A DNA stretch of 35,067 nucleotides from Fibrobacteria bacterium (lineage in GTDB: Bacteria > Fibrobacterota > Fibrobacteria > UBA11236). The translations under genes and the position numbers were made by a program. How positions within the stretch are numbered: position 1 is the stretch's first letter; each line of letters opens with the position of its first letter. Under the pieces are notes generated by a model. That model was not told the origin of the DNA. It did no database searches and was given only the letters and a program-made list of their open reading frames with translations. The stretch lies in contig JAYTHY010000051.1 of assembly GCA_043732185.1 (NCBI GenBank), forward strand, positions 1 to 35,067, written 5' to 3'. Positions 6,001-31,403 of the stretch are shown here, in pieces.

Positions 6001-8256
6001 CAAGGACCCAATGGAGTTGGAGAAGCCGGTGATATTGAGGCTGGTGCTTGCGGCATTGGCTATAGTCACTGCGGAGTTGACACCAAAAGCTTGTGTCGAT
6101 CCCGCCGCAAGGGTTCCTGCATTCACGGTTGTCGTACCCGTATAAGTATTGGACCCTGACAAAGTCAAAGTTCCCGTACCGGTTTTGGTCACTCCCCCGG
6201 TGCCGGATATGATTCCACTATATGGCCCAGGGCTACTATTGTCCCCGCCTACGGTCAAGGTCGCGGCCCCCAGAGTCACGTCACCGCCTGAGCCACCGCC
6301 ACCTGCCAAGGATCCAATTGAAGTGGAAAACCCCGTGATATTGAGTAGCGCACCTGCGGCGTTGATCAGCGTTACCGCCGAATTCGAACCAAAGGCTTGG
6401 CTCGAACCGGCCGCCAGGGTTCCTGCATTCACGGTTGTTGCTCCAGAGTAAGTATTTATCCCATTTAACATTAGGGTTCCTGTCCCCGCCTTGGTAATGC
6501 CGCCCGTTCCGCTGATTACCCCGCCTAGAGTCAAAGTGGAGGCCGAGACTGTGATTTGTCTTGCCCCTGAACCCAAAGAAATGGCACCGGTTCCGATGTT
6601 CAGTGCCTGTGAACCTGAAAACGTAAAGTTGCCAGTCCATGTTTGTGGATTATTAGAGGTGAGGGTTATGGAACCGGCAGAAGTATTATCAAGGGTCATA
6701 CCAGCTGCAATAGTTAAAGTACTGGCAGAACCACCCAAAGCCGTGGTGCTGTTGACGTTTATGGTACCGGCATTCAAATTAGTTCCACCAGTATACGTAT
6801 TCGCGCCACTTAATGTCCAAGTACCGGTCCCGGCCTTCGTCACTGCAGTGGTGCCGGAGCCATTAACTATAGTGCCTGAAAGTACTCCCCCACTGGCTGT
6901 AGAGCCTTGCAAAGTCAGGATCTTGCTACCCACTCCAGTCGCAGTAAGCGCACTGGTGAAAGTCAAAGTACCCGATCCGCTTTGATCTACACTGCCGCCA
7001 CCAGTGGTACCTGCTAGATTGAGAACCCGATCGGTGGATTGGACCGCGCCCGTATATACAAGTGTGCCTGTCGTTGTTGTGCTGCCCAATGCGATGGTGC
7101 CATTGCCTGCCGTGGTTGGCGCACCCAGAGCACTTGATCCGGCCGAAACGGATTTTATAGTATTTACACTCAGTATGCCGTCAGCGATGATGGTTATCCC
7201 CGTATAAGTATTCGAACCGGACAATGTCCAAGTACCCGGGTCCTGCTTAGTGAGAGACCCTGTTCCTATTCCCACCACACCGGAAATGGATCCACCTGCC
7301 CCACCGCCCAGCGTCAGATTTAAACTGGACGCGGAAACACTTCCGCTGATATCGATAGTTCCGCCGCCGCCTTTGATACTGGCTGCGGTGCCAAGGGTTA
7401 TGTTACCCGCATACGTCGCGGGTGCGGCACTGTCATTCACAAGGGCACCAATATTTCCAGGGCCCAGGCCATTCAGAGTGAGGTTTTCCGAGGATAAATA
7501 AACTTGGCCATGTAAATCCATGGCAGCACCAGTTGAAATGGTTGTCCCACCGGAAGTGGAGCCTAAGGCCGAGGCATTATTCAATATCAGTTTTCCACTG
7601 GAGACGGAAGTTGAGCCTGAATACGTGTTGGCTCCGTAGAGAACCAAATTTCCAGTGCCGGATTTTGTCAAGTTGCCGCTTCCACTGATGATTCCATCCA
7701 ATTCGGTATTGCCATTACTGGACACAGTCAATGCAAAGCTTCCCATCGATATCGCGCCAGTGATGACCAGCAGTCCTCCTGAAGTTGTGGCGATGGTGGC
7801 GCCGGAGGTGGTGATCGTTATGGCATTGGAAATTGTCATCACGCCACTTGAAACGCTGCTGGAGATGGCCGTGGCCCCGCCACTCAGTTGTAACGAATTG
7901 CCTCCAATGACAAAAGGGCCGGAGCCGCCACTAAAACTAATCGAGTTGAATGTAGTGCCCGAAGTAAAATCATTGTTAGGAGTCAATCGTGTAGTTCCAG
8001 CGAAAACGATGTCGTCACCGGCTGATGGCGCAACACTTCCGACCCAATTTGCCGCCGTAGTCCAGTTGTCGCTGGCGCCGCTGCCATTCCATGTTCGCGT
8101 AACCGCAGAAGCAAATCCGACAAGTATAAAAAGGATAAATATTGATTTTGACATTAGGGGCACTCGAGAAATTCTATAGTCACGATTGTGACCGAAAAGA
8201 CCAGCAATGGCCCAGTTGCTTTCCGGTTTTTGAATTTTCCAAATGCGATGAATCAT
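1..8256 (-). CDS. Giant secreted beta-helix / PATR-repeat adhesin-like protein, 5' part only (>2752 aa, open through position 1)
   Basis: One frame stays open from ATG 8256 (AGGA SD just upstream) or ATG 8154 to the window edge, which is why the track omits it. Signal peptide MSKSIFILFILVGFASA is followed by TRTWNGSGASDNWTTAANW. The protein is G/T/S/A-rich with about 11 xTKxGxGTLxLSGxNTYTGxTxVxxGxL motifs. Confidence 0.93.
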   Translation of the reverse strand, partial: MIHRIWKIQKPESNWAIAGLFGHNRDYRISRVPLMSKSIFILFILVGFASAVTRTWNGSGASDNWTTAANWVGSVAPSAGDDIVFAGTTRLTPNNDFTSGTTFNSISFSGGSGPFVIGGNSLQLSGGATAISSSVSSGVMTISNAITITTSGATIATTSGGLLVITGAISMGSFALTVSSNGNTELDGIISGSGNLTKSGTGNLVLYGANTYSGSTSVSSGKLILNNASALGSTSGGTTISTGAAMDLHGQVYLSSENLTLNGLGPGNIGALVNDSAAPATYAGNITLGTAASIKGGGGTIDISGSVSASSLNLTLGGGAGGSISGVVGIGTGSLTKQDPGTWTLSGSNTYTGITIIADGILSVNTIKSVSAGSSALGAPTTAGNGTIALGSTTTTGTLVYTGAVQSTDRVLNLAGTTGGGSVDQSGSGTLTFTSALTATGVGSKILTLQGSTASGGVLSGTIVNGSGTTAVTKAGTGTWTLSGANTYTGGTNLNAGTINVNSTTALGGSASTLTIAAGMTLDNTSAGSITLTSNNPQTWTGNFTFSGSQALNIGTGAISLGSGARQITVSASTLTLGGVISGTGGITKAGTGTLMLNGINTYSGATTVNAGTLAAGSSQAFGSNSAVTLINAAGALLNITGFSTSIGSLAGGGGSGGDVTLGAATLTVGGDNSSPGPYSGIISGTGGVTKTGTGTLTLSGSNTYTGTTTVNAGTLAAGSTQAFGVNSAVTIANAASTSLNITGFSNSIGSLTGGGGSGGNVILGAAALTIGGDGTSPAAYAGVLSGTGAMTKTGSGTLALTGTNTYTGATTVSSGTLQIGNGGTTGALSSSSGITNNATLAFNRTNTITQGTDFATVIAGTGAVAQMGAAGTLILNGTNTYTGATTINSGSTLKLGAAGVIYDGSAVTVNGTLDLGGYTEGIGSLAGSGTVNNTSGAGTYTLSIGSDGTSTTFSGTIGNSSGTVDVTKLGGGTLTLSGANTYGGQTTISSGKIKMGSASALGSTSGGTTIASGWTLDLNGQTVGAEAITVNGTGISSGGAIMNGVGTSASLSGNITLASASSIVAASGQISLTGSISGTFDLTLSGSANGTLSGIISTGTGSLTKAGTGSWTLSGANTYTGSTTVNAGTLAAGSAQAFGVNSAVTLANVAGTSLDITGYANSIGSLTGGGATGGDITLGAATLTIGGDNSSPGAYAGVISGTGYVTKSGTGTLTLSGANTYTGSTSVNAGSLKLGSTSALGSNASGTYVSTGANLDLNGQNYTTTETLNLNGTGVSTEGALINTSATPATFVGQISLAGATSIVGQSGTIALSNTGTISGAAFGLTLGGSSGGTFAGVLGSGTGDLTKVGTGTWTLSSANSLNSLTLTAGVLNLGTGLTHIVSNTLSLTGGELNFGSSTLGVQAATVDLHLLSTLTPGTGTLNFIGSSAQTFTPKAGSTFPSIAKSGSGTVVLVSNNLSTANLDISAGAFDISTNALTITASGNLQVNGGFLDAGSGSLGIAGNVTFSSGTVTNPSGSFSIGGSYTHSGATVNMNSGTVVFNGTATGKSIDAAGSFNNLTLNGIGGAWTATSHLTVNGTFAMTAGTLDLSTNVRTLTVNTFNQTGGTISSSTGDMDVNGNFTMTAGTLTCPGGARVFYAGGNFAQTGGSLTPGSGTITFDATATGKTVNILSTVNNLTFAGSGGGWTLVTNGITGSALTLTNGALNLGASLIHIFTASPSFTGGSLDFGSSTLRLAGGTVNFNSLSGVTAGTGTLEFTGSSAQAFTPKSTYTLPQILQSGTGTTTLSSYDLLSGNLNVTAGEFNIGTRTVTVSGNLAVSTGTLTASNGALVVNGNVSMTSGTLSAPSGTFSVTGSLTIASGSTLVHNNGTLVLNGTATGKNLDIFPTLYNLTVNGSGGAWTVVNNPLQVASILSLTDGGLDMGSLTHSIGSVTSSGGVATLDFGTSTLNVTVGNAVFSGLATLTAGASSTLGFTAASGIQSVEALAATTHPHITHTGAGTLRLMNASMLCRSFTQSAGTINFNSYNFTTNNSGNFTLNNGTSTSISGLVGRIVTVAGNATLSGASSSDRLDLNPGSPWYLRTTGTASVSLASVDYSDASGYSTVTCSNCANGGSTTNWTFGVTWTGGGGDANWTTATNWASNSVPTSLDAVIFNSTATAATLDAAASVKSISFTSGYTGTFSFSSNTLSILNGNADFSSGGTLTAGTGTLAFTSSSAQTFIPKSGATFPTITQNGAGGTTITINALTAGNLNLTSGTLNLGAGFTHTVAAISGAGGLDFASSNLNATGNVNLSSATITATSSNTLTFTGSSAQTYTPKSSVTALNLTQNGAGGTTVSSYDFTTPTLTITAGTLNLGTSRVHTVSTALTITGGGLDFSSSTFKVAAATVNLNGLTTLSNTSGTLEFSGGSAQTFTPKASTTHPSLNQNGAGGTTIATNNLTADVLTITSGTFALGTGLTHQVTALATTAGTLNFGTSTLQVSGDANLAGLSTLTPGTGILALNKSSGTQILTPKVTVAHPAITHNSAGTLQLATNTLNCASFSQNAGSLDFNGRNITTTGNFTVTNGTATTFTGITGRTLTVGGAASFTGTSSANRINLNPGAAWTLTVTGALTGSFASVDFSDASTSTGPGTCTSCANMGSNNNWIFNVGWDGGAGDGLWSSANNWTSDYVPATTDVVSFNATSSAATLDVAASVKAITFTSGYTGTFSFSSNTLTINSGNADFQSGGAITAGTGALAFTGSSAQTFIPKS
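301..1884 (-). repeat. One complete 527-aa super-module of the giant protein, containing ~95-98-aa sub-repeats
   Basis: The boundary motif CxxCANxGSxxNWxFxVxWxGGxGDxxWxxAxNW occurs at 1927-1938 (CSNC) and 346-357 (CTSC), exactly 1581 nt apart. SAQT(F/Y)xPK-type motifs recur at ~1590, 1305, 1010 and 720. Confidence 0.85.
4190..7680 (-). repeat. Array of ~11 passenger-associated transport repeats (autotransporter-associated beta-strand repeat)
   Basis: Examples: LTKSGTGNLVLYGANTYSG (~7670), VTKAGTGTWTLSGANTYTG (~6845), VTKTGTGTLTLSGSNTYTG (~6190), LTKAGTGSWTLSGANTYTG (~4950), VTKSGTGTLTLSGANTYTG (~4640). The last copy (~4220) is degenerate. Confidence 0.9.
4600..6455 (-). repeat. Three closely related ~101-aa units within the PATR region (~6150-6455, ~5845-6150, ~4600-4905)
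   Basis: Each unit reads TTVNAGTLAAGSxQAFGxNSAVT...SIGSLxGGGxxGGxxxLGAATLTxGGDxxSP; the similarity is also visible in the DNA (repeated 'ggttcctgc(a/g)ttcacggt'). Confidence 0.85.
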
Positions 8257-8294
8257 CCAATTCCTAAAATCCCGGGTTGTCGGGACCTTAGATT

Positions 8295-8321
8295 GTATCG
8301 GCAGGAAGCAAAATTAGGGAA
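8295..8321 (-). promoter_or_regulatory. Possible sigma-28 (FliA/WhiG)-type -10 element for the giant gene
   Basis: GCCGATAC at 8302-8295 (consensus GCCGATAA), 38 nt before ATG 8256; the -35 match is poor. Confidence 0.4.
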
Positions 8322-9012
8322 GAACTAATAGTAGCCAAAGGCAAATCAATCGAATTTCTGTGACATGGATCACCCAAAATCTCATGAGAAAATTTGATGC
8401 CCTGGTGCGCCTATCAGTAAAATACTGGATTATAAACCAGCCCATTTATCCTCCTGCGTCAATATTTTTGTGGATAGTCACCCCAAAAGCCCAATTCAAA
8501 ATTACCTGAGCTGCTAGTTTCCACCTGATTTTGACCTTTTTAACAGGATCACTCGTGGGATTGACTAGCCTGATTTTGGGGGGAATGCCATGCCCGGTCT
8601 GTGAATTTATCCATCTAGAATGATGCTGAATTGTCCAAGCTGACTAGTGGATTATTTTGATTACTTCATGAGTTGATAGGGAATGAGATCCGGGACAAAT
8701 CCTTTTCGCATTAAATTTTTGTTTTTGGTAGGCAAAAATGACTCCTTTAGGGCAAGGATATTGCACTAAAAATGGGTTTTTTTAGTACTTAAGATATTAC
8801 TGCCGGGGTGGCGGAAATAAATACCACAAAAAATTTATGAGTTAAAAAAAATATTCTTTAAATTTCTAAATGTGGGTGTTTATACCCTTTCATACTCTAT
8901 GGTTTGATCGCTTCAGAGCATTCCTGGAAACCTATAATCATATAGGGTGTCTTACGCGCTACCTGTCCTGTTAAAAATCATGATTATTTTACTTGGCTAA
9001 TCTTCCTGCCGA
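8298..9012. repeat. 11-bp perfect inverted repeat bracketing the divergent promoter region
   Basis: tcggcaggaag at 8298-8308 and cttcctgccga at 9002-9012; an additional attag/ctaat match lies just inside, with a 4-nt offset. Confidence 0.75.
8750..8765 (+). promoter_or_regulatory. Possible sigma-54 -24/-12 promoter
   Basis: gGGCAaGgataTTGCA has exact GG-N10-GC spacing and 2 mismatches to TGGCACG-N4-TTGCW; it lies ~385 nt upstream of pilin 1. Confidence 0.3.
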
Positions 9013-9083
9013 GTTCCATACTTTAATCATGCGCAAATATCTGTGGGTGCATAAAAAAGGACAATTTATTTTTGGAAAACATC

Positions 9084-9111
9084 TCAAGTCAGCCAAAAAG
9101 TAAACCGATAG
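9084..9111 (+). promoter_or_regulatory. Possible sigma-28-type promoter for the pilin operon
   Basis: TCAAG-N15-ACCGATAG, ending 37 nt before ATG 9149. Confidence 0.45.
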
Positions 9112-9148
9112 AATATGTACTCATCAACCTCAACTAAGGAGAATCAAA

Positions 9149-9739
9149 ATGAGTAAATTGAATTGGAAAAATTTCAGGACAACTGCGGCGGCGATAGCTA
9201 TAGCAGCGTCCATTTCTCATGGAGCCGTGGCTACGGTAGGTGGTAACGTGCAGGTGACCAATCTTCTCAACAGCAATGCTCAGTTGGGTTTGGATTTGAC
9301 ATCAGCCGGTACGCTTATCGAAATCGCCAATTTTACCATCACTCAGAATACTACCTCATATGACTTGACAATGGTGTTTGCAAATGGAGGTCGGTTTCTG
9401 CGTGTGGGCGGCGGCGGCACGGCTGGTGAGCGTATTGATATGACGGCGCTTACCATCAACCCAATTAGTGGTACTTTAGGCACCAGCATTGCAGCACTAA
9501 ATCCAGCTTCAGCGGTTACCCTTGCTGGTCCAACTCCTTGGACTACTGTAACTGGTGGATTGCTTACTGGTGCTCTCGTACCAGGTACGTCGCAATCCAT
9601 TACGTGGAATCCTGCCAATCAGATCACCCCGACTGTCGGCTATATATTGTCGCTACGGGCATCGTGGGCAGCAGGCACAAACGTGATGTCCGGGTTGTAT
9701 ACGGAAACGATCACTGCCACACTAACTGCGACGCTTTGA
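9149..9739 (+). CDS. Chaperone-usher pathway major pilin-like subunit, copy 1
   Basis: Strong SD (TAAGGAG), 25-aa signal peptide, beta-rich 171-aa mature part, C-terminal GLYTETITATLT motif typical of CU pilins; lies upstream of chaperone and usher. Confidence 0.82.
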   Translation: MSKLNWKNFRTTAAAIAIAASISHGAVATVGGNVQVTNLLNSNAQLGLDLTSAGTLIEIANFTITQNTTSYDLTMVFANGGRFLRVGGGGTAGERIDMTALTINPISGTLGTSIAALNPASAVTLAGPTPWTTVTGGLLTGALVPGTSQSITWNPANQITPTVGYILSLRASWAAGTNVMSGLYTETITATLTATL

Positions 9740-9781
9740 TTCTGCCTAACGCGTGATTTTTAAAAATGAAAGGAATTTAGT

Positions 9782-10372
9782 ATGGGCAACTTGACTTTGA
9801 AAAGGTTAAGAAATTCAACTCTGGCTTTGGCTATTGCAGCTTCTCTATCCCATGGTGCAGTGGCTACTGTCGGAGGTAACGTACAGGTGACTAATCTGCT
9901 GAACAGCAATGCTCAGTTGGGTTTGGATCTGACATCGGCTGGTACACTTATTGAGATTGCAAATTTCACTATCACTCAAAATACCACGTCATATGATTTG
10001 ACAATGGTGTTTGCCAATGGTGGACGGTTTCTCCGTGTGGGTGGTGGTGGCACGGCCGGTGAGCGAATTGATATGACGGCACTTACCATCAATCCCATTA
10101 GTGGAACTTTGGGCACCAACGTTGTGGCCCTAAATCCTGCTTCTGCAGTTGGACTTACGGGTCCAACTCCTTGGACTACGGTAACGGCAGGTCTGCTAAC
10201 TGGCGCACTTGTTCCAGGTACCTCGCAATCCATTACGTGGAACCCTGCCGATCAAATTACTCCAACGGTCGGTTATATATTATCGTTGCGGGCATCGTGG
10301 GCAGCAGGCACAAACGTAATGTCCGGCTTGTATACCGAAACGATTACTGCCACCTTAACAGCCACCCTTTAA
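9782..10372 (+). CDS. Chaperone-usher pathway major pilin-like subunit, copy 2
   Basis: Same length as copy 1; the mature region differs at only 7 residues; SD AAGGA. Confidence 0.82.
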   Translation: MGNLTLKRLRNSTLALAIAASLSHGAVATVGGNVQVTNLLNSNAQLGLDLTSAGTLIEIANFTITQNTTSYDLTMVFANGGRFLRVGGGGTAGERIDMTALTINPISGTLGTNVVALNPASAVGLTGPTPWTTVTAGLLTGALVPGTSQSITWNPADQITPTVGYILSLRASWAAGTNVMSGLYTETITATLTATL

Positions 10373-10404
10373 GCACTTTTTAGTCGGCTTTTATGGGTTT
10401 TTTA

Positions 10405-10440
10405 AAAAGGGAGGGGTCTTTCCCCTTCCTTTTACATTTT
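10405..10440 (+). terminator. Intrinsic terminator / attenuator after the major pilins
   Basis: Stem AAAAGGGAGGGG, loop TCTTT, stem CCCCTTCCTTTT, followed by ACATTTT. Confidence 0.75.
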
Positions 10441-10444
10441 TCAA

Positions 10445-10978
10445 ATGATAAAATTTAAAACGATGGTCAAGAGAATTGGATTTAGATGGAGACCCAAATG
10501 GGGGGGGTGGGGTCCGTGCTGCCTGCTTGCCTTCATGCCGATACAAGCCGCGGTTGGAGATAACACTGTAAACTCACTGCAATGTCAGGGCGTCTTTGGC
10601 ATAGTTTTTAATCAGGCTGCTGTAGCACAACAATTGGCTGTTTATTTGATCAACAACGACTATACTAACGCGTTTGACGTAACTTTTCATTTCGCTAATA
10701 AGGGAAAGTTTAAAAGTGGAAGCAATGAGATTGCAATCTCTTCTATAATATTAAACAAGCTTTCCGGCACACTGGGCGCGGGTCTAACAAATCCAGCTAC
10801 AAATCTTGCAGTGACACTGGATGGATCCGGCGACTGGATTTGGAACCCTGGAACGACTCAGACCACCGAGACTACTTTACTACTTCTAGAACTCAAAGCA
10901 AGCTGGCCAGATGGTTCCAATTCCATGGCCGGTTTTTATTCGGAGACCATAACTGCCACAATTTCAGTGGGTTTGTAA
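10445..10978 (+). CDS. Minor pilin-like subunit (divergent paralog of the two major pilins)
   Basis: Shares FANxGxF, SGTLG, WNP, LxASW and GxYxETITAT with the major pilins; atypical signal peptide; start could be 10463. Confidence 0.75.
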   Translation: MIKFKTMVKRIGFRWRPKWGGWGPCCLLAFMPIQAAVGDNTVNSLQCQGVFGIVFNQAAVAQQLAVYLINNDYTNAFDVTFHFANKGKFKSGSNEIAISSIILNKLSGTLGAGLTNPATNLAVTLDGSGDWIWNPGTTQTTETTLLLLELKASWPDGSNSMAGFYSETITATISVGL

Positions 10979-11012
10979 AATTTTGGAGACATAAATTCTT
11001 TCAGGAGTCCTT

Positions 11013-11819
11013 ATGACAAGGCTGTATTTGGGTTTAATGGTCGGATGCCTTTTGGTAGTCCGCAGCTGGGCGGTTAGTTTTTCATTGGATACATGGATAA
11101 TCACCCTCGAGCCGGATTTAAAAAAGTCCAGTCAAGTGATCACGCTCAAATATGTCGGAAGTGAATTTAGCGGGCCCAAATCTGCTGCAAAATCCCTCTT
11201 GCCTATACCTGTGGAGTTTTCCATCTACCCACGTTTCATTGATTTGGATGGCAAGGTCACTTATGATACATCCAAGGGAGCACCCGAATTCATGATCTAC
11301 CCTTCTCAGGTCATCTTATATCCTGGGGATATTCAAAAGATTCAGATCCAATGGATATCTGATAAACCTCTTACCAAAGAAATAATTTTTGGACTCATTG
11401 CCCTCCAGGTGCCAGTAAACCTTGAAGGCAATGCCAAAGACTTAAAAACACCGCAAGGCGGTGTGACTATTTTGACACGGTATGAGGGAATAATTGTGGT
11501 TAGGCCAAAAGGTACAAGGGCGGAAGTCGTTGTTGATACTCTTTATCCAATAATCGATAGCGTCGGCAACGCCACTTTGGTCATGCTTCTTAAAAATAAT
11601 GGTACCGGTATGCAATTGACTAAAAATATGCGGTTGACTGTTGCGCCTTTGGATGCCAACGGTCGTATCATCCTAAAAGATAAAATCAATTTCGTCCCCG
11701 AATTGAGCTACACTGCCACTAAGCACGCGCTTTTTGCAGGCCAAACTCGGCGTTACATGCTGCCGTGGCCAAAACAAATTCCTGTGGGCCGCATTCAGGT
11801 CATTCCTGAATTCCCATAA
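11013..11819 (+). CDS. Periplasmic pilus assembly chaperone (PapD/FimC/CsuC-like)
   Basis: SD AGGAG, signal peptide ending SWA, and motifs IYPSQVILYPGDIQKIQIQW, QVPV, RYEGIIVVRP, LKNNGT. Confidence 0.85.
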   Translation: MTRLYLGLMVGCLLVVRSWAVSFSLDTWIITLEPDLKKSSQVITLKYVGSEFSGPKSAAKSLLPIPVEFSIYPRFIDLDGKVTYDTSKGAPEFMIYPSQVILYPGDIQKIQIQWISDKPLTKEIIFGLIALQVPVNLEGNAKDLKTPQGGVTILTRYEGIIVVRPKGTRAEVVVDTLYPIIDSVGNATLVMLLKNNGTGMQLTKNMRLTVAPLDANGRIILKDKINFVPELSYTATKHALFAGQTRRYMLPWPKQIPVGRIQVIPEFP

Positions 11820-12021
11820 TTATTTTTCCTAATTTCAATTCATAATAGAGTTAGCACTCTAAAAACATCCCTGAATTGTAATGCCCCTTTGGCTTGATTG
11901 AGAACTTGCTGCAATGGTAAAATATCATTGTCTATTGCGAAGTTTTCGATTTAATTGATTTTTGACATTAAGTTTGGGTTCCCTTTTTTTTAAAGCAGAG
12001 CTCGCATTGTTTGAAAAGAAT

Positions 12022-15000
12022 ATGTTAAAAACCTTACACCTTTTAGGATTCCTTATCGGCATTTTTGTGTCGCCTTTTCTTCAAGCTGCCGATTCTGGAT
12101 TTCGTCAAGTCGATGCGACTCTAATTGTGAATGGCAAGGCAAAAGGACTAATGCTATTGGAGTGGTTTCCGGGAAAAGGTCCATTCCATTTTCCTGGTCC
12201 CTTGGTTCTCATGGCACTATCTGATCTTGTTCCCCCTCGGTTGATACTGGAACTTGATTCTAAACTTTCCTCGGCAGGATTTCTGACCAGCGACGATTTG
12301 CGTCAACTTGGTATTGGTGTAGAATATTCAAAGGTAAAATCCGAATTGCAGCTTTCCTACAAGGGTATTAAGGGGATATCTAAGTTGGTAACCGGAGATC
12401 CAAATTTACCAGAAACAAAATCCGGTCCTGAGAAATTATCTCCTTCCGCGTATAGGCAAGATACTATGAAGGCGACTTTAAACGATTCTTTGGATTTTCA
12501 GGTTCCTTTTTCGCAACCACCTGAACTCGTTACGAGCAAATTAGCCCATACCCCGAAGGAAGTTGAAAATCATATAGGTCTAAACCCAGTGCCCAACCCA
12601 GTGCCCAACCCAGTGCCAGCGCCTGACGCATTTGTTTCAAAGTCTAAATCGGTGCCAAATGCGGCACTGGCCCCCGCGACACCATTAACGGAATCAAAAG
12701 TACTCCCTGCAACTCCAATGGCCTCATCACAGGTAGTTGAAAAATCCGATGCAGCATCCCCTAAGTCCGTTGACACTTTATCTGAAAAACCAATAATGTC
12801 GACTTATTCCTATCCGGAATCCAGAGATGCACTTTTTAAATCGGTTTTTAAATCACAACCCCCTCCAATACCCGTAGATGTGGAGGTTTCCCTCCTGGTT
12901 GATGGGAACATTTGGGGGAAGGTTTGGATCAAGTTGACTGCACAAAAAGATGAGTTTTTTGTTTCTATGGATAAAATAAATTTGGCCTTGGAAGGTAGAG
13001 TATCCTCTGAAAATTTAAAAAATCTTGCTTTAACTAAAACTAAGGATGGCGTGGTGTCTGGAAAATCGATTTTGGCCCAAGGAATTGTACCTACTTTGAA
13101 GGCGAATGAATTCGAGTTGAATTTGCAATTGCCTAGCCAACTGCTCGCCACTCAAACACATAATCTCAGCAGCAGTGGTGACACCTTTGATCCGGCCGAT
13201 TATGATCAGCCAGCTTTTATTTCTGGGTATATCAATAGTCGCATAAAGCAGCTTTTACAATACCGTGAAATATCACCCAATGCTACAGTGAGCCAGACAT
13301 TTGCCTCAGCATACTTGAAGGGCAAAAACGATCACTTTCGACCGCCTTGGGTTTTGGATTTTAATGGAGCGATAAATATAAAAGGCGTGGTACTAGAAAG
13401 TCGGGCAACTTATGTTGAGCCTCAGGAGAATATACCATCGGAATTAGTGAGAAACGATATTCGTGTGGTTTATGATCAACCTAGTCAGGCTATACGATAT
13501 ACCGCGGGTGATTTGCTTTTTCCTACTTCCGGGTACCAAACTGTTCTTAAAATGGGGGGCATCGGAGCCGCACGTGATTTTAGTTTGCAGCCGAATTTAA
13601 TAGTATATCCTACCAAAGATTATGAATTCTATTTAGAAAATCAAGCAGAGGTTAGAATTTACGTAAACGCTACGCTGATCCGTACTTTGATTTTGGAAGC
13701 AGGCTCGCATAATTTGCAAGGAATTCCAATGTCTATGGGAGAAAGTGAAATAAAAATTGAAATATTGGATGCTACAGGGCGTACACAGACAGTGGTCTTC
13801 AATTTTATCCATGAAACGTCCTTGCTGGCCAAAGGTCGCTCGATATTTTCCGGAAATTTTGGATTTCCAGGTCAACTTTATCCTCTGCAGGATAATTGGA
13901 GTATTGTAAATGCGGATTTTGATTTTCTTGGATACCGTTACACGATAGATAAATTAATCACCGCTCTTGCGTACCAGAGAGGATTGACCGATGTATTGAC
14001 TGCCGGCGTTTATTCCCAAACATTGAACCAGGATGGTTTGATAGGCCTTAATTTAACTCGGGCTTTTTCGATTGGAACAATGAACGCAGAAGCCGCCCTA
14101 AGTCAGACGGATTCTATAGGAATAGATTTTGGGTTGAATGTCAGTTATGCTAATGTGCCTAGGCCAACGGAGACAAATAATCCCATTAGCTGGCGGGTTA
14201 AAGGGGAATATATTGGAGAAAACTTTTCCCGTATCCAACCTGTAATTACTAGAAGTACCCAGGCTTGGATTTTTTCATTTGGACTTGGAAAAAATCTGGA
14301 TATTATTGATGTAAATCTCGGGGGAGGCTACAGTATAAATAGGGGCAGAAAAAATGTTTATAATGCTTCCTTTGGCGCCCATAAGAATTTATCCAAAGGC
14401 TTTTCTGGGAATATGATAATCAACCATTTTTTTGATCAAAATGACATCGCCAATACCACCTTTACAGCGGTCTTTGCATATAATTTTTCCAGTGGCATCA
14501 ATAACTTTAGTGCGGGTCAGCGGTTTTTGACTCATCCGCCCGAGGCTTCGGATACAATTTCCGCTGCTGTCACTGCACAACCAGAAAAGTGGGATAACTC
14601 AACCGATATAACATGGGACTATAATAGTTCCGCTCCCTTTCCGGATAACCCAAAGGTTACCGGGAGTGTCAGTCTTGCACCTACCTATAACGACTATAGT
14701 ATCCGTACTGGCTTTCGAGGTAATCAGGGAATGCTGGAAATAAATGGACGTCGAAACGAGCCAGGAAAAAATTATGGAAACATAGTTGAGAATCAATTGG
14801 AGTTCGTCGGCCAATCATCCTTGGTATTTGTAAACGGGAGTTTTGGAATATCGAGACCGGTACAAAACGGTTTTCTACTTGCTAAAGGGGTGAAAAACTT
14901 AAAGCATACCAATATTACCATCAACCAGTTTGAAATCGGATATGATGCGCAATCGAATTTATTGGGTCCCGCTGTTCTGCCTTCCCTTTTTCCCTATTCC

Positions 15001-15384
15001 GCCAAAACTATTCGAATCAGTACCATTGATGCGCCGCTGGGATCGTCCGTGGAAAAAAGCATTTTTTATCTGTACCCTCGCTATATGAGCGGCTTTTTGA
15101 TCAAGGTAGGTACGGATGGCGATGTTATTGCAATGGGGACTTTCAGTGACAGGGTGGGAAAGCCTTTGGAGTATAAGGTCTTAAATTTATACTCTATTGA
15201 CGATTCAAAGGTGGAACCGCTAAAAGCCTTTACCAATGCTTCTGGTCGGTTTCAGTTTCCATCTATGAAACCAGGTAAGTGGCGCTTGGAAGCCGTTGAT
15301 TTGGGTTCCACCACCTTCGTTATTCCAAAAGATATAATTGGTATTTACCAACTCGGGGAATTGAAACTGGACCCACTTAAATAA
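12022..15384 (+). CDS. Fimbrial outer-membrane usher with duplicated N-terminal domain
   Basis: Signal peptide from ATG 12022 (the track's TTG 11962 is probably too early). Usher motifs: RYTAGDL, MGGIGAARDFSLQP, plug-like AEVRIYVN...GSHNL..IPMSMGESEIKIEILDATG, C-terminal FTNASGRF. Confidence 0.88.
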   Translation: MLKTLHLLGFLIGIFVSPFLQAADSGFRQVDATLIVNGKAKGLMLLEWFPGKGPFHFPGPLVLMALSDLVPPRLILELDSKLSSAGFLTSDDLRQLGIGVEYSKVKSELQLSYKGIKGISKLVTGDPNLPETKSGPEKLSPSAYRQDTMKATLNDSLDFQVPFSQPPELVTSKLAHTPKEVENHIGLNPVPNPVPNPVPAPDAFVSKSKSVPNAALAPATPLTESKVLPATPMASSQVVEKSDAASPKSVDTLSEKPIMSTYSYPESRDALFKSVFKSQPPPIPVDVEVSLLVDGNIWGKVWIKLTAQKDEFFVSMDKINLALEGRVSSENLKNLALTKTKDGVVSGKSILAQGIVPTLKANEFELNLQLPSQLLATQTHNLSSSGDTFDPADYDQPAFISGYINSRIKQLLQYREISPNATVSQTFASAYLKGKNDHFRPPWVLDFNGAINIKGVVLESRATYVEPQENIPSELVRNDIRVVYDQPSQAIRYTAGDLLFPTSGYQTVLKMGGIGAARDFSLQPNLIVYPTKDYEFYLENQAEVRIYVNATLIRTLILEAGSHNLQGIPMSMGESEIKIEILDATGRTQTVVFNFIHETSLLAKGRSIFSGNFGFPGQLYPLQDNWSIVNADFDFLGYRYTIDKLITALAYQRGLTDVLTAGVYSQTLNQDGLIGLNLTRAFSIGTMNAEAALSQTDSIGIDFGLNVSYANVPRPTETNNPISWRVKGEYIGENFSRIQPVITRSTQAWIFSFGLGKNLDIIDVNLGGGYSINRGRKNVYNASFGAHKNLSKGFSGNMIINHFFDQNDIANTTFTAVFAYNFSSGINNFSAGQRFLTHPPEASDTISAAVTAQPEKWDNSTDITWDYNSSAPFPDNPKVTGSVSLAPTYNDYSIRTGFRGNQGMLEINGRRNEPGKNYGNIVENQLEFVGQSSLVFVNGSFGISRPVQNGFLLAKGVKNLKHTNITINQFEIGYDAQSNLLGPAVLPSLFPYSAKTIRISTIDAPLGSSVEKSIFYLYPRYMSGFLIKVGTDGDVIAMGTFSDRVGKPLEYKVLNLYSIDDSKVEPLKAFTNASGRFQFPSMKPGKWRLEAVDLGSTTFVIPKDIIGIYQLGELKLDPLK
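12583..12617 (+). repeat. 12-bp in-frame tandem repeat (AACCCAGTGCCC x~3, encoding NPVP) in the usher linker
   Basis: Directly visible in the sequence. Confidence 0.9.
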
Positions 15385-15413
15385 TCCGTAGGTGTGATTG
15401 CCGGGTCGGGGAA

Positions 15414-26510: not shown

Positions 26511-27344
26511 TTGAAACTATTTCCTTGCTTACTACTGGGCTGCTGCTTGTTTTTGGCCTCTTGCGAATTCAAAACATATCGGCTCGTTTACCGATTCGAT
26601 CATAAAAACGAGTACCGCATTGAATACTCCGCTAGCCTTCAGGGAAAACAGGAAGGGAGGTTGGGTGGCCATCGCTACCGGACCACCGCAGATGCTGTCT
26701 TTATCGTCCGAGAATCCTTCGATAGCGCGAAGGGTCAAGTCGATCTTGGAATGACGATTGAACATCTTGAATTTCATAGTGCAGAGAGGGCAAAGGACGA
26801 AGACGCTTACATGACCGGGCTGCTGAGTAAGTATCACATGCATGTGCTCGCAACCAATCGAGGTCAAGTATTGTCGATGACCGAAGAGCCTCATTTGCCT
26901 CCGGTGGAATTTTCACCGCTTAATTTTGGGCGACTGCTCCTTTTTGCACTGGCGACCTTTCCTGACTCGGATCTCAAAGTTGGCGGACACTGGGAGTCGG
27001 AACAATCCCTTTTGGATTCGTTTCACCCGGAAGCGAGGCTGAAGAGGTCTTTCAAGCTAACCTTAGTCCGGGAGGCGACCCAAGGATCCATTGCGGAAAT
27101 TGAAGTCGTTTTTAAGGCTTTTCTGGAAGCTGGGCTTGGCCATTCGCCTGCCGACAGCCTTTCCAACTTATCGGGCAAGGGAAAGCTGGAGTTCAACTTG
27201 AATACCGGCCACTTGATTTTTTCGGATTTAAGGATGGAAGGCCATTTTATGGGCCAAACGGCGGACAAGGCTACTGATTCCTCACAATTTGAGACCCTAC
27301 CCTTGTACCTGCAGGAAAACCTGCGCCTCCACTTTTCCGAGTAA
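26511..27344 (+). CDS. Putative lipoprotein, beta-rich, unknown function
   Basis: MKLFPCLLLGCCLFLAS-C lipobox; TTG start. Confidence 0.7.
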   Translation: MKLFPCLLLGCCLFLASCEFKTYRLVYRFDHKNEYRIEYSASLQGKQEGRLGGHRYRTTADAVFIVRESFDSAKGQVDLGMTIEHLEFHSAERAKDEDAYMTGLLSKYHMHVLATNRGQVLSMTEEPHLPPVEFSPLNFGRLLLFALATFPDSDLKVGGHWESEQSLLDSFHPEARLKRSFKLTLVREATQGSIAEIEVVFKAFLEAGLGHSPADSLSNLSGKGKLEFNLNTGHLIFSDLRMEGHFMGQTADKATDSSQFETLPLYLQENLRLHFSE

Positions 27345-27396: not shown

Positions 27397-27426
27397 TTGG
27401 ACCGGGAACGGATTATCTAATATATT
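27397..27426 (+). promoter_or_regulatory. Possible sigma-70 promoter for the three-gene cassette
   Basis: TTGGAC-N18-TATATT in the 92-bp gap, ending 10 nt before TTG 27437 (no SD, so possibly near-leaderless). Confidence 0.35.
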
Positions 27427-27436
27427 TGGACTCCTA

Positions 27437-28351
27437 TTGAGCCATCGATTGTTCCAGACCTACCAAGCCTTTACCTCCAAAGTCTGGCAACAGAATGCGG
27501 ATGCATCAACCGATCCCCGCCGAATTCTGGGTTTTGTTTCAAGTCTTACGGACCCGAACCACACGGTCCTTTTGCGCGCACTCCTGGATAGGGAACATCA
27601 ATTCCGTCAACACACATCCAGCCTGGAAGGTGTGTCGGATTTGTCGGCAGGTCCAAAGGCTTATGCCTTGGCGCAAGATCGCCTCGAGTGGGTTAAAGAA
27701 GAAAACGGTTTGAAATTCTTTGAGTTCCGGGAAAAATGGCGTAAGCGTTTGGCTTTTGTACAGCTCCATCCCTTCCTGCAGAGAAACCAATGGTTTGTAA
27801 AGAATGATGCAGGGTTCGTCGTGTTGGGCAAAGGTACACGCAAGGAAAGCAAAATGCTGTATTTGCAAACCTTGCACGATATGGCTTCAGATGCGGAGCG
27901 GCAGGTCTCTTCCATCACCGGACATTTATTCCGGTTGCAAACGGAAGTTGCCACGGTTTGGCACCAGGAATCGGTTACCGACGACCGCAGCCGGTTATTG
28001 CCGGTTCTTGAAGAAGCGTTGCGGCCGGGCGAGGCGGAAATGTGCAAACGCGTTCGTCTGTCCATCGGTGATTTGGCTTCGGAGACTTTTATCGATCGCG
28101 TAGGAAAATGGGATAAGCGCAGCCATGCCACGGAAGCGGAATTGTTCCGTCAAATTGCCTGGCCATGGTATCATGCCCGTTACTCCAGCGGTTTTGAAGG
28201 CTTCATGGAATCTTTCGCAGATTTGGTAGAAGCCGTGAGCAATTCCATGATCAGGCATTATCAAGGCAAATGGGACCTATTCCTACGCGGATTAGCGCCT
28301 TTGGCAGACACGCCACCACAAATTTCATCGGGAGAAATAATCCATGTCTAA
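27437..28351 (+). CDS. Helical hypothetical protein, tentatively a distant DUF3348 (Zorya III accessory) relative
   Basis: 304-aa ORF overlapping the next gene by 8 nt; the helical pattern is colinear with recalled DUF3348 consensus; position upstream of the ZorA-like gene. Confidence 0.5.
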   Translation: MSHRLFQTYQAFTSKVWQQNADASTDPRRILGFVSSLTDPNHTVLLRALLDREHQFRQHTSSLEGVSDLSAGPKAYALAQDRLEWVKEENGLKFFEFREKWRKRLAFVQLHPFLQRNQWFVKNDAGFVVLGKGTRKESKMLYLQTLHDMASDAERQVSSITGHLFRLQTEVATVWHQESVTDDRSRLLPVLEEALRPGEAEMCKRVRLSIGDLASETFIDRVGKWDKRSHATEAELFRQIAWPWYHARYSSGFEGFMESFADLVEAVSNSMIRHYQGKWDLFLRGLAPLADTPPQISSGEIIHV

Positions 28352-29807
28352 ACGGAAAAATTACGGACCGTACTTCCTCATCGCCAGTTTGGTCTTGGGC
28401 GTACTCTTGCTGACCGGCTCGTTCATCTGGATGGCGGACAAGTCCAATATGCTTTTAGCTGTCTTCGTGCTCATCCTTTACGGTGTGGGGCAGTGGATTA
28501 CCGTGGTGTATTGGCAGAATATTCAAAATGATTGGGAAGCGACCGGAGTGATTCTGGGTCGTCTACAAGCAGCCGTCAGCGATATTCCCACCGCCTTGGA
28601 CAGCAATTTAAAGGCGATTTCCCAGCACCTTTTGGATGGACAGCGCGTCGCTCTTGCCAGTCTTCAATCCGAAGTCACCGGTACCGCTCAACAAACTTTG
28701 CAGCAAGGCGCTTCGCTCATTTCCTCTAGCCTGGAAAAAAACTTGGTAGCCCCGCTTGAGGCCATTCAAACCTCCCTGAACGCCTGGCGCAATCAAGCCG
28801 ACACTCAGGCGCAAGCCACACTTGACTTCAGCAACGCGTTACGAAAATCACAATCGGAATGGAGCCAGCAAACTCAAGGCCTGGTGACCGGTTTGACATC
28901 GGACCTCAATAAATTGGTCGTCGCGCAGACGGCTGAACTTAAGGGCCTGGTTACAGGACAGACTTCTGAATTCAAAAGTTTGGCAGCCGTACAAGCGACG
29001 GAACTCAAAGGGCTGGTTGTTGGTCAGACCACGGAGCTTAAAGGATTAGTTTCCGGTCAGACCACGGAACTTAATGGTTTAGTCACTGGGCATACTGACG
29101 AAATAAAATCTTTGTCTGCTTCCTTCACAGCAGAACTCAGCGGTTTGGTAAGCGCGTTGACTGCTGAATTCACAGCCTTGGCCAGTGCCAGCAGCTCGGC
29201 CGGTGAGCAGTTGCAGCAGGCGTGGTCTGATAAGGCCGCCGAACTTCAGTCCGAATGGGAAGATAAAATGCAGAAAATGCAGGTGGGCTTGGTCGCCGCC
29301 GTAACCGCTGAAAGTGCCAAGCTGGGTTCTACGATTTCAGAAGGTACCGAAGCATTCCTGTCCCGCGTTGAGGGGCTTCAGTCCACTCAGGTGGAAATTC
29401 AAGGTGAGGCATTGGAAAAGGTGATGGCGGGAATCGAGTTGCAAAGTCAATCAGACCAAAAGGTAACGGAAAGAATTTCCGACCTGACGGAACTGATGAG
29501 TTTGGGGACTAAGGATTTTCAAGAGTTGGCCCAGCTCGCCCAGGTCAATCAAGTGGAAATGCAGGCCGGTGTGGGGATGCTCAATGTGGGACTTTCCACC
29601 ATTCTGGAACGGCTGGAAAAACAGGCCAATGCCGGTGATGGATATCAAAATTTCATGTCCGACTTGTCTCGGGCGCTCGCCAGTTTCCAAAAGGGCGCAT
29701 CAGATGTATTGATTGAAAACGCCATGAAAACTCAGGAAATCCTGATGGAAGTGCTCAGTCAGGCAGAACGCAAAAATGATTCCGAGGCTGTGGCCTCGAT
29801 TTCCTGA
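28344..29807 (+). CDS. Two-TM membrane protein with long coiled-coil tail; DUF802/ZorA-III-like but lacking MotA channel helices
   Basis: SD GGGAG; TM helices at ~aa 10-30 and 36-57; ~430-aa Q/A/L/S-rich helical tail with 11-aa repeats; C-terminal LASFQKGASDVLIENAMKTQEILMEV. Confidence 0.6.
   Translation: MSKRKNYGPYFLIASLVLGVLLLTGSFIWMADKSNMLLAVFVLILYGVGQWITVVYWQNIQNDWEATGVILGRLQAAVSDIPTALDSNLKAISQHLLDGQRVALASLQSEVTGTAQQTLQQGASLISSSLEKNLVAPLEAIQTSLNAWRNQADTQAQATLDFSNALRKSQSEWSQQTQGLVTGLTSDLNKLVVAQTAELKGLVTGQTSEFKSLAAVQATELKGLVVGQTTELKGLVSGQTTELNGLVTGHTDEIKSLSASFTAELSGLVSALTAEFTALASASSSAGEQLQQAWSDKAAELQSEWEDKMQKMQVGLVAAVTAESAKLGSTISEGTEAFLSRVEGLQSTQVEIQGEALEKVMAGIELQSQSDQKVTERISDLTELMSLGTKDFQELAQLAQVNQVEMQAGVGMLNVGLSTILERLEKQANAGDGYQNFMSDLSRALASFQKGASDVLIENAMKTQEILMEVLSQAERKNDSEAVASIS
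28869..29198 (+). repeat. Ten tandem 11-aa (33-bp) hendecad repeats
   Basis: QTQGLVTGLTS DLNKLVVAQTA ELKGLVTGQTS EFKSLAAVQAT ELKGLVVGQTT ELKGLVSGQTT ELNGLVTGHTD EIKSLSASFTA ELSGLVSALTA EFTALASASSS. Confidence 0.92.
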
Positions 29808-29838
29808 ACCAAAAATAAAAGCTTAGAGCAAAAGCCCA

Positions 29839-30651
29839 ATGGAAAACCATCCCCTGATGCCCGTGACTGAAGCGATTGAAGCAGTTGCAGGGACTAAAGC
29901 GTCCGAAGCGTCCGGTACGACTGAAATGTCTGTGGTAGCCGATGAGCTGGCAGGGAAACTGACACGTTACCCAGGGCCATCTTATCGGAAAGCCTATTTT
30001 ACCAACCTACTGGCAAGTGGCAGCCGCTTACATGCCGCTGGGGAAATCCGCGCCGGCGCCTACTGCTTTGAAAAAGTTGCTGAAGCAATGCTGGAAGTGT
30101 CTTCGCAGGTTACGGAAAATGCTCCAACGGCCGATGCCGCCGCTCATATTGTTCCAACTCCGACCTCAGAGTTGGAACAAGCCTCGCCTCTAGAAACTAT
30201 TCGGCACCGAATGCGTAAGGATCACTTCACTACGGCAGAGGCCATATTGCGCAAGCAAGCCCGTCGACTGTCCACTTTAGAGAATCAAATCTATCGTGAA
30301 AAACTGGATGCACTTAAGTCTGCTGGGGATGCGGCCGACACTCTCGCACAGGTTTCCAAGATAGATGATAAGCTCTTGGACCTTCGTCGCAAATTGTATA
30401 CGCGCATTCTCAAGGCTCAAAAAACGGCCCTGCGAAGCCGGCGTGTACGGCACACAACCGTGTTGCAAATTCAAGGACCGGAAGCCGCTGCTGCTCCGAA
30501 GTTTATCGTTGGACCCTACAATGATGTGTACAATCTTGGGGACCTATTGTCCTTAATCGGCAAAACCGATTCCCCCTGGGTGGAGGAGTTTTTGGATTTG
30601 TACCGCAGCTTTGGAAGTCTTAAAGGCTTGACCCCGGTGGGTCCAGCTTAG
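29839..30651 (+). CDS. Helical hypothetical protein with C-terminal DUF2894-like motif
   Basis: C-terminal GPYNDVYNLGDLLSLIGKTDSPWVEEFLDLYRSFGSL matches the recalled GP(L/Y)N...L..(M/I)...SP.(Y/W)L..F..Y..L pattern. Confidence 0.6.
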   Translation: MENHPLMPVTEAIEAVAGTKASEASGTTEMSVVADELAGKLTRYPGPSYRKAYFTNLLASGSRLHAAGEIRAGAYCFEKVAEAMLEVSSQVTENAPTADAAAHIVPTPTSELEQASPLETIRHRMRKDHFTTAEAILRKQARRLSTLENQIYREKLDALKSAGDAADTLAQVSKIDDKLLDLRRKLYTRILKAQKTALRSRRVRHTTVLQIQGPEAAAAPKFIVGPYNDVYNLGDLLSLIGKTDSPWVEEFLDLYRSFGSLKGLTPVGPA

Positions 30652-31403
30652 TGGGCCTTGGTGGTGCGGGATTGGATTCCCGTTCCCAGGAATATGCCAG
30701 ACACTCCTGAGAATTTTTCTCCGACCTGTAATCCGCCTACTTCGATTTTATATTCGCGAATGTCTTTGTCGTGGTCGCTTCCACGCATTTTGAGCACCAT
30801 CAAACAACGTTTGATCTCGGAATCCATTTCGAGATAACGCAGCAAAATATAGGTATCCACAATAAAAGGGATTTTATTGGTGGCCACATCCCATTTGCCC
30901 AGGACGTTGGCGTTTTCCTTGAGAAAGATGGCGGTCATGCCCTCGCGCTTCACGGCGTTGACTATTTCCGTTTCAATCGTGCGGAGTTGTCCAATATCCC
31001 GGGAGAGCCGTTCAAAATGGGTGATGCTGTCCAGTACAATGCGCTTGGTATTATGGACGGATAGAAGTTTGGCCAATTTTCCGTTAGGGTCGTCGATCTC
31101 TTCCAAAAACTCATCAGGAGTGGTAAAGATGACTTTGATTTTGTCTTCATTTTGCAAAGCGCGCAAATCCCAGCCAAGTTCACCGGCACAGTCGTAGTAC
31201 TGCTCCGGGTATTGCTCGAAGGTGAAAATAATCCCGTGTTCCTTTTCCTTAACGCCCTGCATGATGAATTGCATTGCCAGGGTGGTTTTTCCGGTGCCGG
31301 CGGAACCTTCAATGAGGGTGGCTGAACCTTCCAGCAGTCCGCCTTGCAAGACTTTGTCCAGTCCCGTGCAGCCTGTTTTGACTCTTCTCGTGGTAACGGT
31401 CAT
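30648..31403 (-). CDS. Single-domain KaiC-like RecA-superfamily ATPase
   Basis: KTGCTGLDKVLQGG, GSAGTGKT, TFEQ, VLDSIT, VLKMRGSDHD; SD AAGGAGG. Confidence 0.92.
   Translation of the reverse strand: MTVTTRRVKTGCTGLDKVLQGGLLEGSATLIEGSAGTGKTTLAMQFIMQGVKEKEHGIIFTFEQYPEQYYDCAGELGWDLRALQNEDKIKVIFTTPDEFLEEIDDPNGKLAKLLSVHNTKRIVLDSITHFERLSRDIGQLRTIETEIVNAVKREGMTAIFLKENANVLGKWDVATNKIPFIVDTYILLRYLEMDSEIKRCLMVLKMRGSDHDKDIREYKIEVGGLQVGEKFSGVSGIFLGTGIQSRTTKAH

Follow-up and report, generated by a model that had tools for sequence, protein, structure and literature searches.

A probable motor-less descendant of a Zorya type III-like machine in the class Fibrobacteria

Zorya type III anti-phage loci, as the text of Payne et al. 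(2021, PMC8565338) sets them out, have the order DUF3348 gene, zorA3 (DUF802), zorB3 and DUF2894 gene, and the system of Stenotrophomonas nitritireducens is the only type III system known to have been tested, in E. coli. For type I, the account given by Hu et al. (2024, PMC11946911) presents ZorA5B2 as a proton-driven 5:2 rotary motor, with the DNA-binding ZorC and the nuclease ZorD as its partners. Here we analyse a three-gene cluster at positions 27,437 to 30,651 of a 35,067-nucleotide stretch of DNA from a Fibrobacteria bacterium (contig JAYTHY010000051.1 of assembly GCA_043732185.1; the whole stretch is called the window below), in which a zorA-like gene stands between two partner genes and zorB is missing. 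These genes, we consider, probably descend from a Zorya type III-like machine, vertically inherited in the class Fibrobacteria, and have lost its motor. In this three-gene form the tail and the two partners appear to work without the motor. In the literature searched, with subscription journals outside the search, we found no zorB-less or Fibrobacterota Zorya III-like system described. To our knowledge, nothing is known about the functions of the two type III partner proteins or about their contact with the ZorA tail. The models PDLC00652-00658 of PADLOC-DB 2.0.0 call DUF2894 'ZorF' and DUF3348 'ZorG', the reverse of the labels in the text of PMC8565338, and because of this reversal we prefer the domain names.

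The cluster and its four-gene relatives

The cluster consists of three intact, tightly spaced open reading frames (ORFs) on one strand, encoding proteins of 304, 487 and 270 amino acids (aa):

27437..28351, + strand: gene 1, 304 aa, TTG start; predicted soluble, all-helical protein in the position of the DUF3348 gene of Zorya type III
28344..29807, + strand: gene 2, 487 aa; putative ZorA derivative that lacks the TM3-TM4 channel segment but has a hairpin of two transmembrane (TM) segments, TM1-TM2, followed by a long tail with a conserved tip
29839..30651, + strand: gene 3, 270 aa; predicted soluble helical protein in the position of the DUF2894 gene of Zorya type III

Genes 1 and 2 overlap by 8 nucleotides (nt) and a gap of 31 nt separates genes 2 and 3, just as an earlier reading made from the sequence only had it. 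No ORF lies within this gap, and hence no zorB. The succession of an upstream partner, a zorA-like gene and a downstream partner, tightly spaced on one strand, is that of Zorya type III; we confirmed the canonical order (DUF3348, DUF802, OmpA, DUF2894) on three annotated plasmid records.

The sequence-only reading had likened the three genes to DUF3348, DUF802 and DUF2894, and direct profile searches did not bear this out. None of the three window proteins matched any of these families in Pfam at E ≤ 1, including the DUF802 repeats (PF05650) in gene 2. Canonical proteins from annotated plasmid records, used as positive controls, were recovered by Pfam with E-values of 1e-94 to 5e-97 (DUF3348, PF11828), 2e-32 to 8e-33 (DUF802 in ZorA3) and 8e-66 to 8e-70 (DUF2894, PF11445), and by PADLOC with 1e-114 (ZorB3). 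Genes 1 and 3 gave no match in PADLOC at E ≤ 1 and none in NCBIfam. The sole direct match to a Zorya model was a weak, tail-only hit of PADLOC ZorA3 on gene 2 with E 4e-5, which pairs aa 76-430 with positions 239-579 of the 780 in the profile. This hit falls in a low-complexity helical region, for which Pfam offers apolipoprotein-like repeats, compositional helical matches only. Taken by themselves, these results would fit an unrelated membrane coiled-coil protein with two helpers, whose resemblance to Zorya is compositional.

The relatives of the cluster argue against such a reading. The order gene 1, gene 2, gene 3 is kept in all ten larger loci first taken from relatives (L011-L020). Three of them, from family f5 (L015, L016 and L018; families of the class are designated f1 to f8, f1 being the window's own), carry an extra gene of 212-216 aa between genes 2 and 3. 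Its product matched PADLOC ZorB3 with E-values of 1.2e-40 to 1.8e-44 and is an OmpA protein with a weak MotB_plug match in Pfam, and gene 2 of the same loci, at 547-597 aa, matched PADLOC ZorA3 models, the strongest match reaching E 6.4e-15 and covering aa 13-543. Six further four-gene loci came from families f3, f6, f7 and f8 and from two more genera of f5; the extra gene measures 212-229 aa across L015, L016, L018 and L049-L054. In an hhalign comparison of eight four-gene ZorA-like proteins with seven canonical ZorA3 proteins, the membrane domains aligned over 192 columns (Prob 97.5%, E 5.1e-12), and the ZorB aspartate (F-T/G-D-L) was present in 8/8 Fibrobacteria and 4/4 canonical sequences. 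By these matches, gene 2 of the four-gene relatives is assigned as a four-TM ZorA3-like protein, and the zorB found there as a clear ZorB3. The tail and tip of gene 2 in the window have their orthologous counterparts in the four-TM proteins, with which aa 394-476 share 47-49% identity in tblastn (E 9e-16 to 5e-17). Indeed, the Zorya link of the window cluster holds because clusters orthologous to it in all three genes, and in the same order, contain ZorB3 and a ZorA3-like four-TM gene. Together with the similarity of genes 1 and 3 to their expected counterparts only, given below, this makes a purely compositional resemblance very improbable.

Relatives of this kind may already have been seen at the protein level. 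Entries for F. succinogenes S85 in PMC6851124 name FSU_0284 as an uncharacterised cytoplasmic protein, FSU_0285 as a putative MotB, FSU_0286 as a 'fimbriae-associated' protein with an ExbB/MotA domain and FSU_0288 as an uncharacterised protein, all four detected in the pure-culture envelope proteome. Going by the product names and numbering in that source alone, the run FSU_0284-FSU_0288 matches the cluster. The label 'fimbrial protein' or 'fimbriae-associated' that the Fibrobacter ZorA-like protein carries at NCBI found no support, and we set it aside.

For genes 1 and 3, deep alignments were compared by hhalign. Gene 1 and DUF3348 (52 versus 125 sequences) aligned collinearly along 195 columns with P 0.007, while gene 3 and DUF2894 (22 versus 126 sequences) aligned along 105 columns with P 5.9e-4, in contrast to four cross controls, with P 0.15-0.26 over 14-38 columns. 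The similarity is thus weak, although confined to the expected pairings; for gene 1 it improved only with deep alignments, small ones giving P 0.097. The aligned motifs are the best-conserved of the families: LLPxLEaaLRxxE in gene 1 with LDAVLDqALaaRE in DUF3348, and vGPYN...DPiWVeDFlelY in gene 3 with aGPLNS...SPeYLqqF in DUF2894. From profiles, position and gene order together, we think it rather likely that genes 1 and 3 are homologous to DUF3348 and DUF2894.

Loss of the motor parts

The features of gene 2 that bear on the motor are the following:

28374..28508, + strand: TM hairpin (aa 11-29 and 37-55) from the hydropathy scan; aligns with TM1-TM2 of four-gene ZorA-like proteins and of canonical ZorA3
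28509..28514, + strand: junction at aa 56/57 (between ..VVY and WQN..), where four-gene relatives have about 170 extra residues
28998..29071, + strand: 33-nt (11-residue) tandem repeat in the tail (Tandem Repeats Finder: period 33, 2.2 copies)
29466..29807, + strand: tail tip (aa 375-487), the most conserved part of the protein, best kept at about aa 385-480

The two hydrophobic segments, located by a Kyte-Doolittle scan, are followed by about 430 residues without a TM segment, so that gene 2 is a two-TM protein with a very long tail, as had been read from the window, and has the long cytoplasmic tail of a Zorya III ZorA. Four-gene ZorA-like proteins and canonical ZorA3 have, besides the N-terminal TM pair, a second pair near residues 100-195. 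The extra segment of about 170 residues in the four-gene proteins contains TM3 (LLGLLGTFxGL) and TM4 (GIFGTSLCGL); the corresponding alignment columns, 106-268, are filled solely in the eight four-gene sequences, and the window protein passes from TM2 directly into its tail. TM3-TM4 are present only in four-gene forms and absent from all three-gene forms, gene 2 of the window among them. Pfam found no MotA_ExbB match in gene 2, and the cluster has neither the channel helices nor the B subunit of a 5:2 ion motor. By analogy with the solved ZorAB and MotAB motors, the missing segment would be the one that forms the ion channel around ZorB.

The tail of gene 2 is probably helical, since it gives apolipoprotein-like Pfam matches and contains 11-residue repeats (unit ..TELKGLVxGQT..). 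In the window's genome and the two closest to it gene 2 measures 487, 476 and 465 aa; the differences are exactly 11 and 22 residues and lie within the repeat, indicating that tail length shifts in whole repeat units. Across 38 sequences the tip shows no variation at Q403 or L467, and another 11 of its positions reach 90% conservation or more. The tip is retained even in minimal gene-2 forms of 180-209 aa. These occur in genus g23 of f5, where gene 2 has shrunk to one TM segment plus the tip (L047:6519-7061, L048:7183-7812) and genes 1 and 3 are likewise shortened, on long branches, a second and more extreme motor-less form.

Could the motor be supplied from elsewhere in the genome? The two-TM tail protein might dock on another stator of the MotAB, ExbBD or TolQR type and so still be ion-driven, and the genome of the window (100% complete, 139 contigs) does hold 11 MotA_ExbB matches, belonging to ordinary stator or Exb/Tol-type genes, and 11 OmpA/MotB-like matches, with adjacent pairs on contigs C50 and C6. 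None of these candidates is a ZorB3 orthologue: over the whole genome the PADLOC ZorB3 model found generic OmpA/MotB proteins only, at 63 bits or less, and our own ZorB profile reached 58 bits at best, against 160-391 bits for true orthologues. ORFs of the genome gave no ZorA3, DUF3348 or DUF2894 profile match, and gene 1, gene 3 and the tail tip each turned up only once. A search for an orphan zorB or a full zorA thus came back empty, leaving intact the proposal that the system does without them. In addition, the segment missing from gene 2 is the one that contacts the B subunit in 5:2 motors. The loss of zorB was accompanied by that of TM3-TM4 in all three-gene lineages seen, and none of the three-gene loci examined has a stator gene linked to the cluster. 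We therefore think a motor acting in trans unlikely. In the window's lineage, zorB and the ZorA channel helices are absent together.

The distribution of the genes across the phylum, the Fibrobacterota according to the names borne by homologues, shows how old this absence is. The gene-1 profile had one match per genome in 203 of 296 genomes, that is, in 203/208 of the class and 0/88 of the other classes; 30 of 31 relatives in f1 and all six f2 genomes have it. A ZorB3-like gene (Fibrobacteria ZorB profile, E ≤ 1e-25) was found in 137/208 genomes of the class, distributed by family: 0/31 in f1, nor in the window's own genome; 0/6 in f2; 0/12 in f4; 0/14 in genus g23 of f5; and, on the other side, 1/1 in f3, 2/2 in each of f6, f7 and f8, and nearly all genomes in the other f5 genera. 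Every locus examined from f1 and f2 has the three-gene form (L002-L014, L017, L019, L020, L055, L056), as do those examined from f4 (three) and g23 (two), so that the zorB-less arrangement recurs among homologous neighbourhoods. An unpublished genome (G011) is 1 of the 14 same-genus genomes in these tallies, and no claim depends on it alone.

In a gene-1 tree built by maximum likelihood, with all 21 rows kept, three changes are required to account for the three-gene label, of which well-supported branches force at least two. Genus g23 is nested in the four-gene clade of f5, f7 and f8, and f1, f2 and f4 share a clade with the four-gene f3. Motor loss occurred at least twice, the four-gene form being taken as ancestral because canonical type III has four genes.

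The ratios of nonsynonymous to synonymous substitution rates (dN/dS, Nei-Gojobori, against the two closest genomes) rose from 0.016-0.031 in gene 1 through 0.069-0.084 in gene 2 to 0.16-0.245 in gene 3; partial sequences of two neighbouring genes gave 0.00-0.01 (KaiC-like ATPase) and 0.29-0.45 (upstream lipoprotein). All three cluster genes are under purifying selection. These ratios, together with the occurrence of gene-1 orthologues in 203/296 genomes, mean that the three genes are real and not chance ORFs.

The same data bear on the idea that the cluster is a Zorya III-like operon caught soon after a deletion and on its way to being lost. Four-gene relatives, which the sequence-only reading had listed as a possible sign of recent decay, do exist, and the rate of evolution is higher in gene 3 than in gene 1. 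Nevertheless, the form with three genes is old and fixed, being found in every f1 and f2 locus examined, with zorB in 0/31 and 0/6 genomes; all frames are intact, dN/dS lies well below 1, and tail length varies only in whole 11-residue units. Recent decay is largely refuted, and we give it hardly any credence. A stable zorB-less variant of a Zorya III-like cluster, as had been suggested, is what the four-gene orthologues, the absence of zorB from f1 and f2 and dN/dS values of 0.02-0.25 support.

A predicted complex and the favoured reading

Gene 1 is conserved from residue 1 in its orthologues. Its AlphaFold2 (AF2) model (predicted local distance difference test, pLDDT, 90.3; predicted template modelling score, pTM, 0.87) is a helical bundle with a small hairpin, and the gene-3 model is helical (pLDDT 79.7, pTM 0.47). 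Searched against the PDB with Foldseek, both models came back without a match at E ≤ 1e-3. The C-terminus of gene 3 reads GPYNDVYNLGDLLSLIGKTDSPWVEEFLDLY, where the GPYN...WVEEF..Y ending noted earlier can be seen directly in the translation:

30511..30603, + strand: gene 3 C-terminal motif GPYN...WVEEFL.LY (aa 225-255); aligns with AGPLNS...YLqqF of DUF2894 and would form the gene-1 interface in the complex model

In the 25 orthologues aligned, G225, Y227 and N228 are invariant (25/25) and D244 and W247 nearly so; the orthologue from G011 is 1 of these 25 rows, which served also for the gene-3 structure and the complex model.

We modelled a three-chain complex of gene 1, the tail tip (aa 375-487) and gene 3, in which gene 3 was the partner that was scored. 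The score was 0.83 (runs 0.83, 0.84 and 0.82), in contrast to controls in which gene 1 (0.29) or gene 3 (0.00 twice) was replaced. This mark is reached by 116/157 solved complexes and by 2/215 mismatched pairs, a calibration that is only rough here, with our own alignments and three chains. The runs share at least 63% of contacts, and partner pLDDT is at least 64. In the model, aa 229-266 of gene 3 contact aa 187-213, 267-288 and 17-77 of gene 1, which are its most conserved positions, and gene 3 also contacts aa 454-478 of the tail tip. The model supports binding of gene 3 to gene 1 and to the tail tip.

Taken together, these results suggest the following history and organization. The ancestor would have had gene 1, a four-TM ZorA-like protein whose long cytoplasmic tail had a conserved tip, a MotB/OmpA protein of the ZorB3 type with its conserved TM aspartate, and gene 3. 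The window's lineage would then have dropped zorB and the ZorA segment of about 170 residues with TM3-TM4. In the remnant, gene 2 would be anchored via the TM1-TM2 hairpin, its tail reaching into the cytoplasm, where the tip, gene 3 and gene 1 would form one complex, the GPYN...WVEEFL motif docking on the most conserved helices of gene 1. The three proteins may thus constitute a static, membrane-tethered platform, which would retain the output half of the machine, tail and partners, without ion-driven activation.

Several observations weigh against this picture. Genes 1 and 3 of the window reach no standard threshold for DUF3348 or DUF2894, and those of the four-gene relatives are blank for both families in Pfam and PADLOC at E ≤ 0.1. 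When 1.84 billion representatives were searched exhaustively with the gene-1 profile, no more than 68 matched at E ≤ 1e-3, which makes the gene-1 family small and closed; the profile did not reach the large DUF3348 family, as far as these 68 matches, not themselves Pfam-scanned, allow this to be judged. A protein atlas has no DUF3348 or DUF2894 among the nearest clusters, these being unnamed or having a minority of their members labelled PglZ or DUF7863, with scores that stay below 0.9. For the tail tip, hhalign against the canonical ZorA3 tail gave P 0.018, not significant. By these comparisons gene 2 of the window lacks the sole part that is robustly homologous to ZorA, and for that reason its assignment rests on orthology and synteny. 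The gene-1 tree is unrooted, the four-gene-ancestral polarity coming from the canonical four-gene systems, and the complex score expresses the confidence of a model and is not a measurement. Even so, we hold descent from a Zorya type III-like machine to be the probable origin of the cluster.

Surroundings, possible role and comparison with known systems

Two further features lie directly upstream of gene 1:

27398..27426, + strand: weak promoter-like site, TGGACC-17-TATATT, 9/12 sigma-70-like matches
26511..27344, + strand: upstream gene for a predicted lipoprotein of 277 aa, whose lipobox ..FLASC occupies aa 14-18; DUF6263-like in relatives

The possible dedicated promoter noted earlier is thus present as a 9/12 match, and as a promoter it is a weak candidate, since 8 such matches were observed around it against 4.4 ± 1.9 expected. 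A homologue of the upstream gene stands directly 5' of gene 1 in the same-genus loci L011, L012, L019 and L020 and in families f5 and f8, and one homologue matches DUF6263 (E 5e-7); none was seen 5' of gene 1 in loci L013, L014, L017 and L044-L048. The lipoprotein gene is possibly associated with the cluster. In f5 and f8 we observed a tight six-gene array, in which genes for a predicted DUF6263-like lipoprotein and for a secreted beta-helix protein precede gene 1, zorA, zorB and gene 3 (L015:2306-7729, with gaps of at most 14 nt; also L016, L018 and L052-L054), and of its two leading genes the window retains the lipoprotein (26511-27344) without the beta-helix gene.

A Ser/Thr kinase with TPR repeats precedes the 277-aa gene upstream of the cluster. 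Downstream and convergent lie a KaiC-like ATPase, holA and greA, followed by the housekeeping genes argJ and glyA. The KaiC-like gene (30648-31403, - strand, 251 aa) converges on gene 3, the stop regions overlapping by 4 nt, and it adjoins the cluster in most loci of the window's family. Elsewhere in the window, a very long open frame, 2752 aa or more (1-8256, - strand), continues past the window start, and positions 8001-15400 are low in GC (0.41-0.46 against about 0.50-0.55 elsewhere), with five same-strand ORFs of 177-1140 aa and no Pfam match at E ≤ 1e-5. This low-GC stretch may be foreign DNA.

These surroundings bear on the role of the cluster, which might still be phage defence, with the tail, gene 1 and gene 3 acting as a sensor-effector pair that needs no motor. 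The type III system of S. nitritireducens is reported to have reduced plaquing in E. coli (PMC8565338), the type I tail is described as relaying a signal to soluble effectors (PMC11946911), and gene 3 is the fastest-evolving of the three. Against this stand the single copy of the cluster, its near-universal presence in the class and its synteny with greA-holA from genus to genus, a class-wide core distribution that is unlike a typical defence island. As had been recognized from the window, it sits among housekeeping genes and not on an island, its GC (0.50-0.52) equalling that of the surroundings (0.47-0.53). Family scans and Foldseek found no nuclease or other effector domain in the three proteins. 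Motor-independent defence is thus a tenable possibility to which we give rather less than an even chance. Of the roles that we consider, a housekeeping function at the inner membrane comes near to an even chance, a constitutive or differently triggered anti-phage function falls somewhat short of that, and some other function takes what is left. More tentatively still, we propose that the Fibrobacteria Zorya III-like machine is a core, vertically inherited inner-membrane apparatus and not a mobile immune module, in which the complex of tip, gene 3 and gene 1 performs the essential function and the motor is a discardable accessory.

The cluster provides a natural separation of function, the motor having been removed at least twice with the tip and both partners retained under purifying selection. 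This makes testable the idea that tail and partners work without rotation, and the idea that the partners bind via aa 229-266 of gene 3, aa 187-213 and 267-288 of gene 1 and aa 454-478 of the tip. Standard defence finders miss a Zorya-like system in 203/208 genomes of a bacterial class, which raises the question whether Zorya-like systems are always immune modules. If the core-apparatus proposal is true, kin of DUF3348 and DUF2894 would form a motor-independent cytoplasmic complex with a cellular role, and Zorya-type defence may derive from a housekeeping machine, or the reverse.

Among known proteins and systems, the stalk domains of dynamin and Mx family proteins offer a fold lead for gene 1 only. 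Canonical Zorya type III shares with the window the gene order and flanking proteins of matching size, a profile similarity that is weak yet specific, with common motifs, for gene 1/DUF3348 and gene 3/DUF2894, and, through the four-gene relatives of the window cluster, ZorB3 and a ZorA3-like four-TM motor. It differs in that the window has no zorB, no TM3-TM4 and no DUF802 repeats, in that genes 1 and 3 of the window stay below every family threshold, and in its patchy occurrence, whereas the Fibrobacteria cluster is a class-wide core. A ZorB3-like gene turned up in 187 records of plasmids or chromids, of which 135 are Ralstonia megaplasmids, and the three annotated canonical type III loci lie among metabolic and transport genes, with no obvious defence island. 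The four-gene Fibrobacter locus is orthologous to all three window genes and has the tail tip and the gene-3 C-terminal motif in common with them, but it retains the motor (ZorB3, TM3-TM4) and in f5 and f8 belongs to the six-gene array. Compared with Zorya type I, as PMC11946911 presents it, the window lacks the motor and its partners have no recognisable enzymatic domain, but both systems would be built on a membrane protein whose long cytoplasmic helical tail recruits soluble partners.

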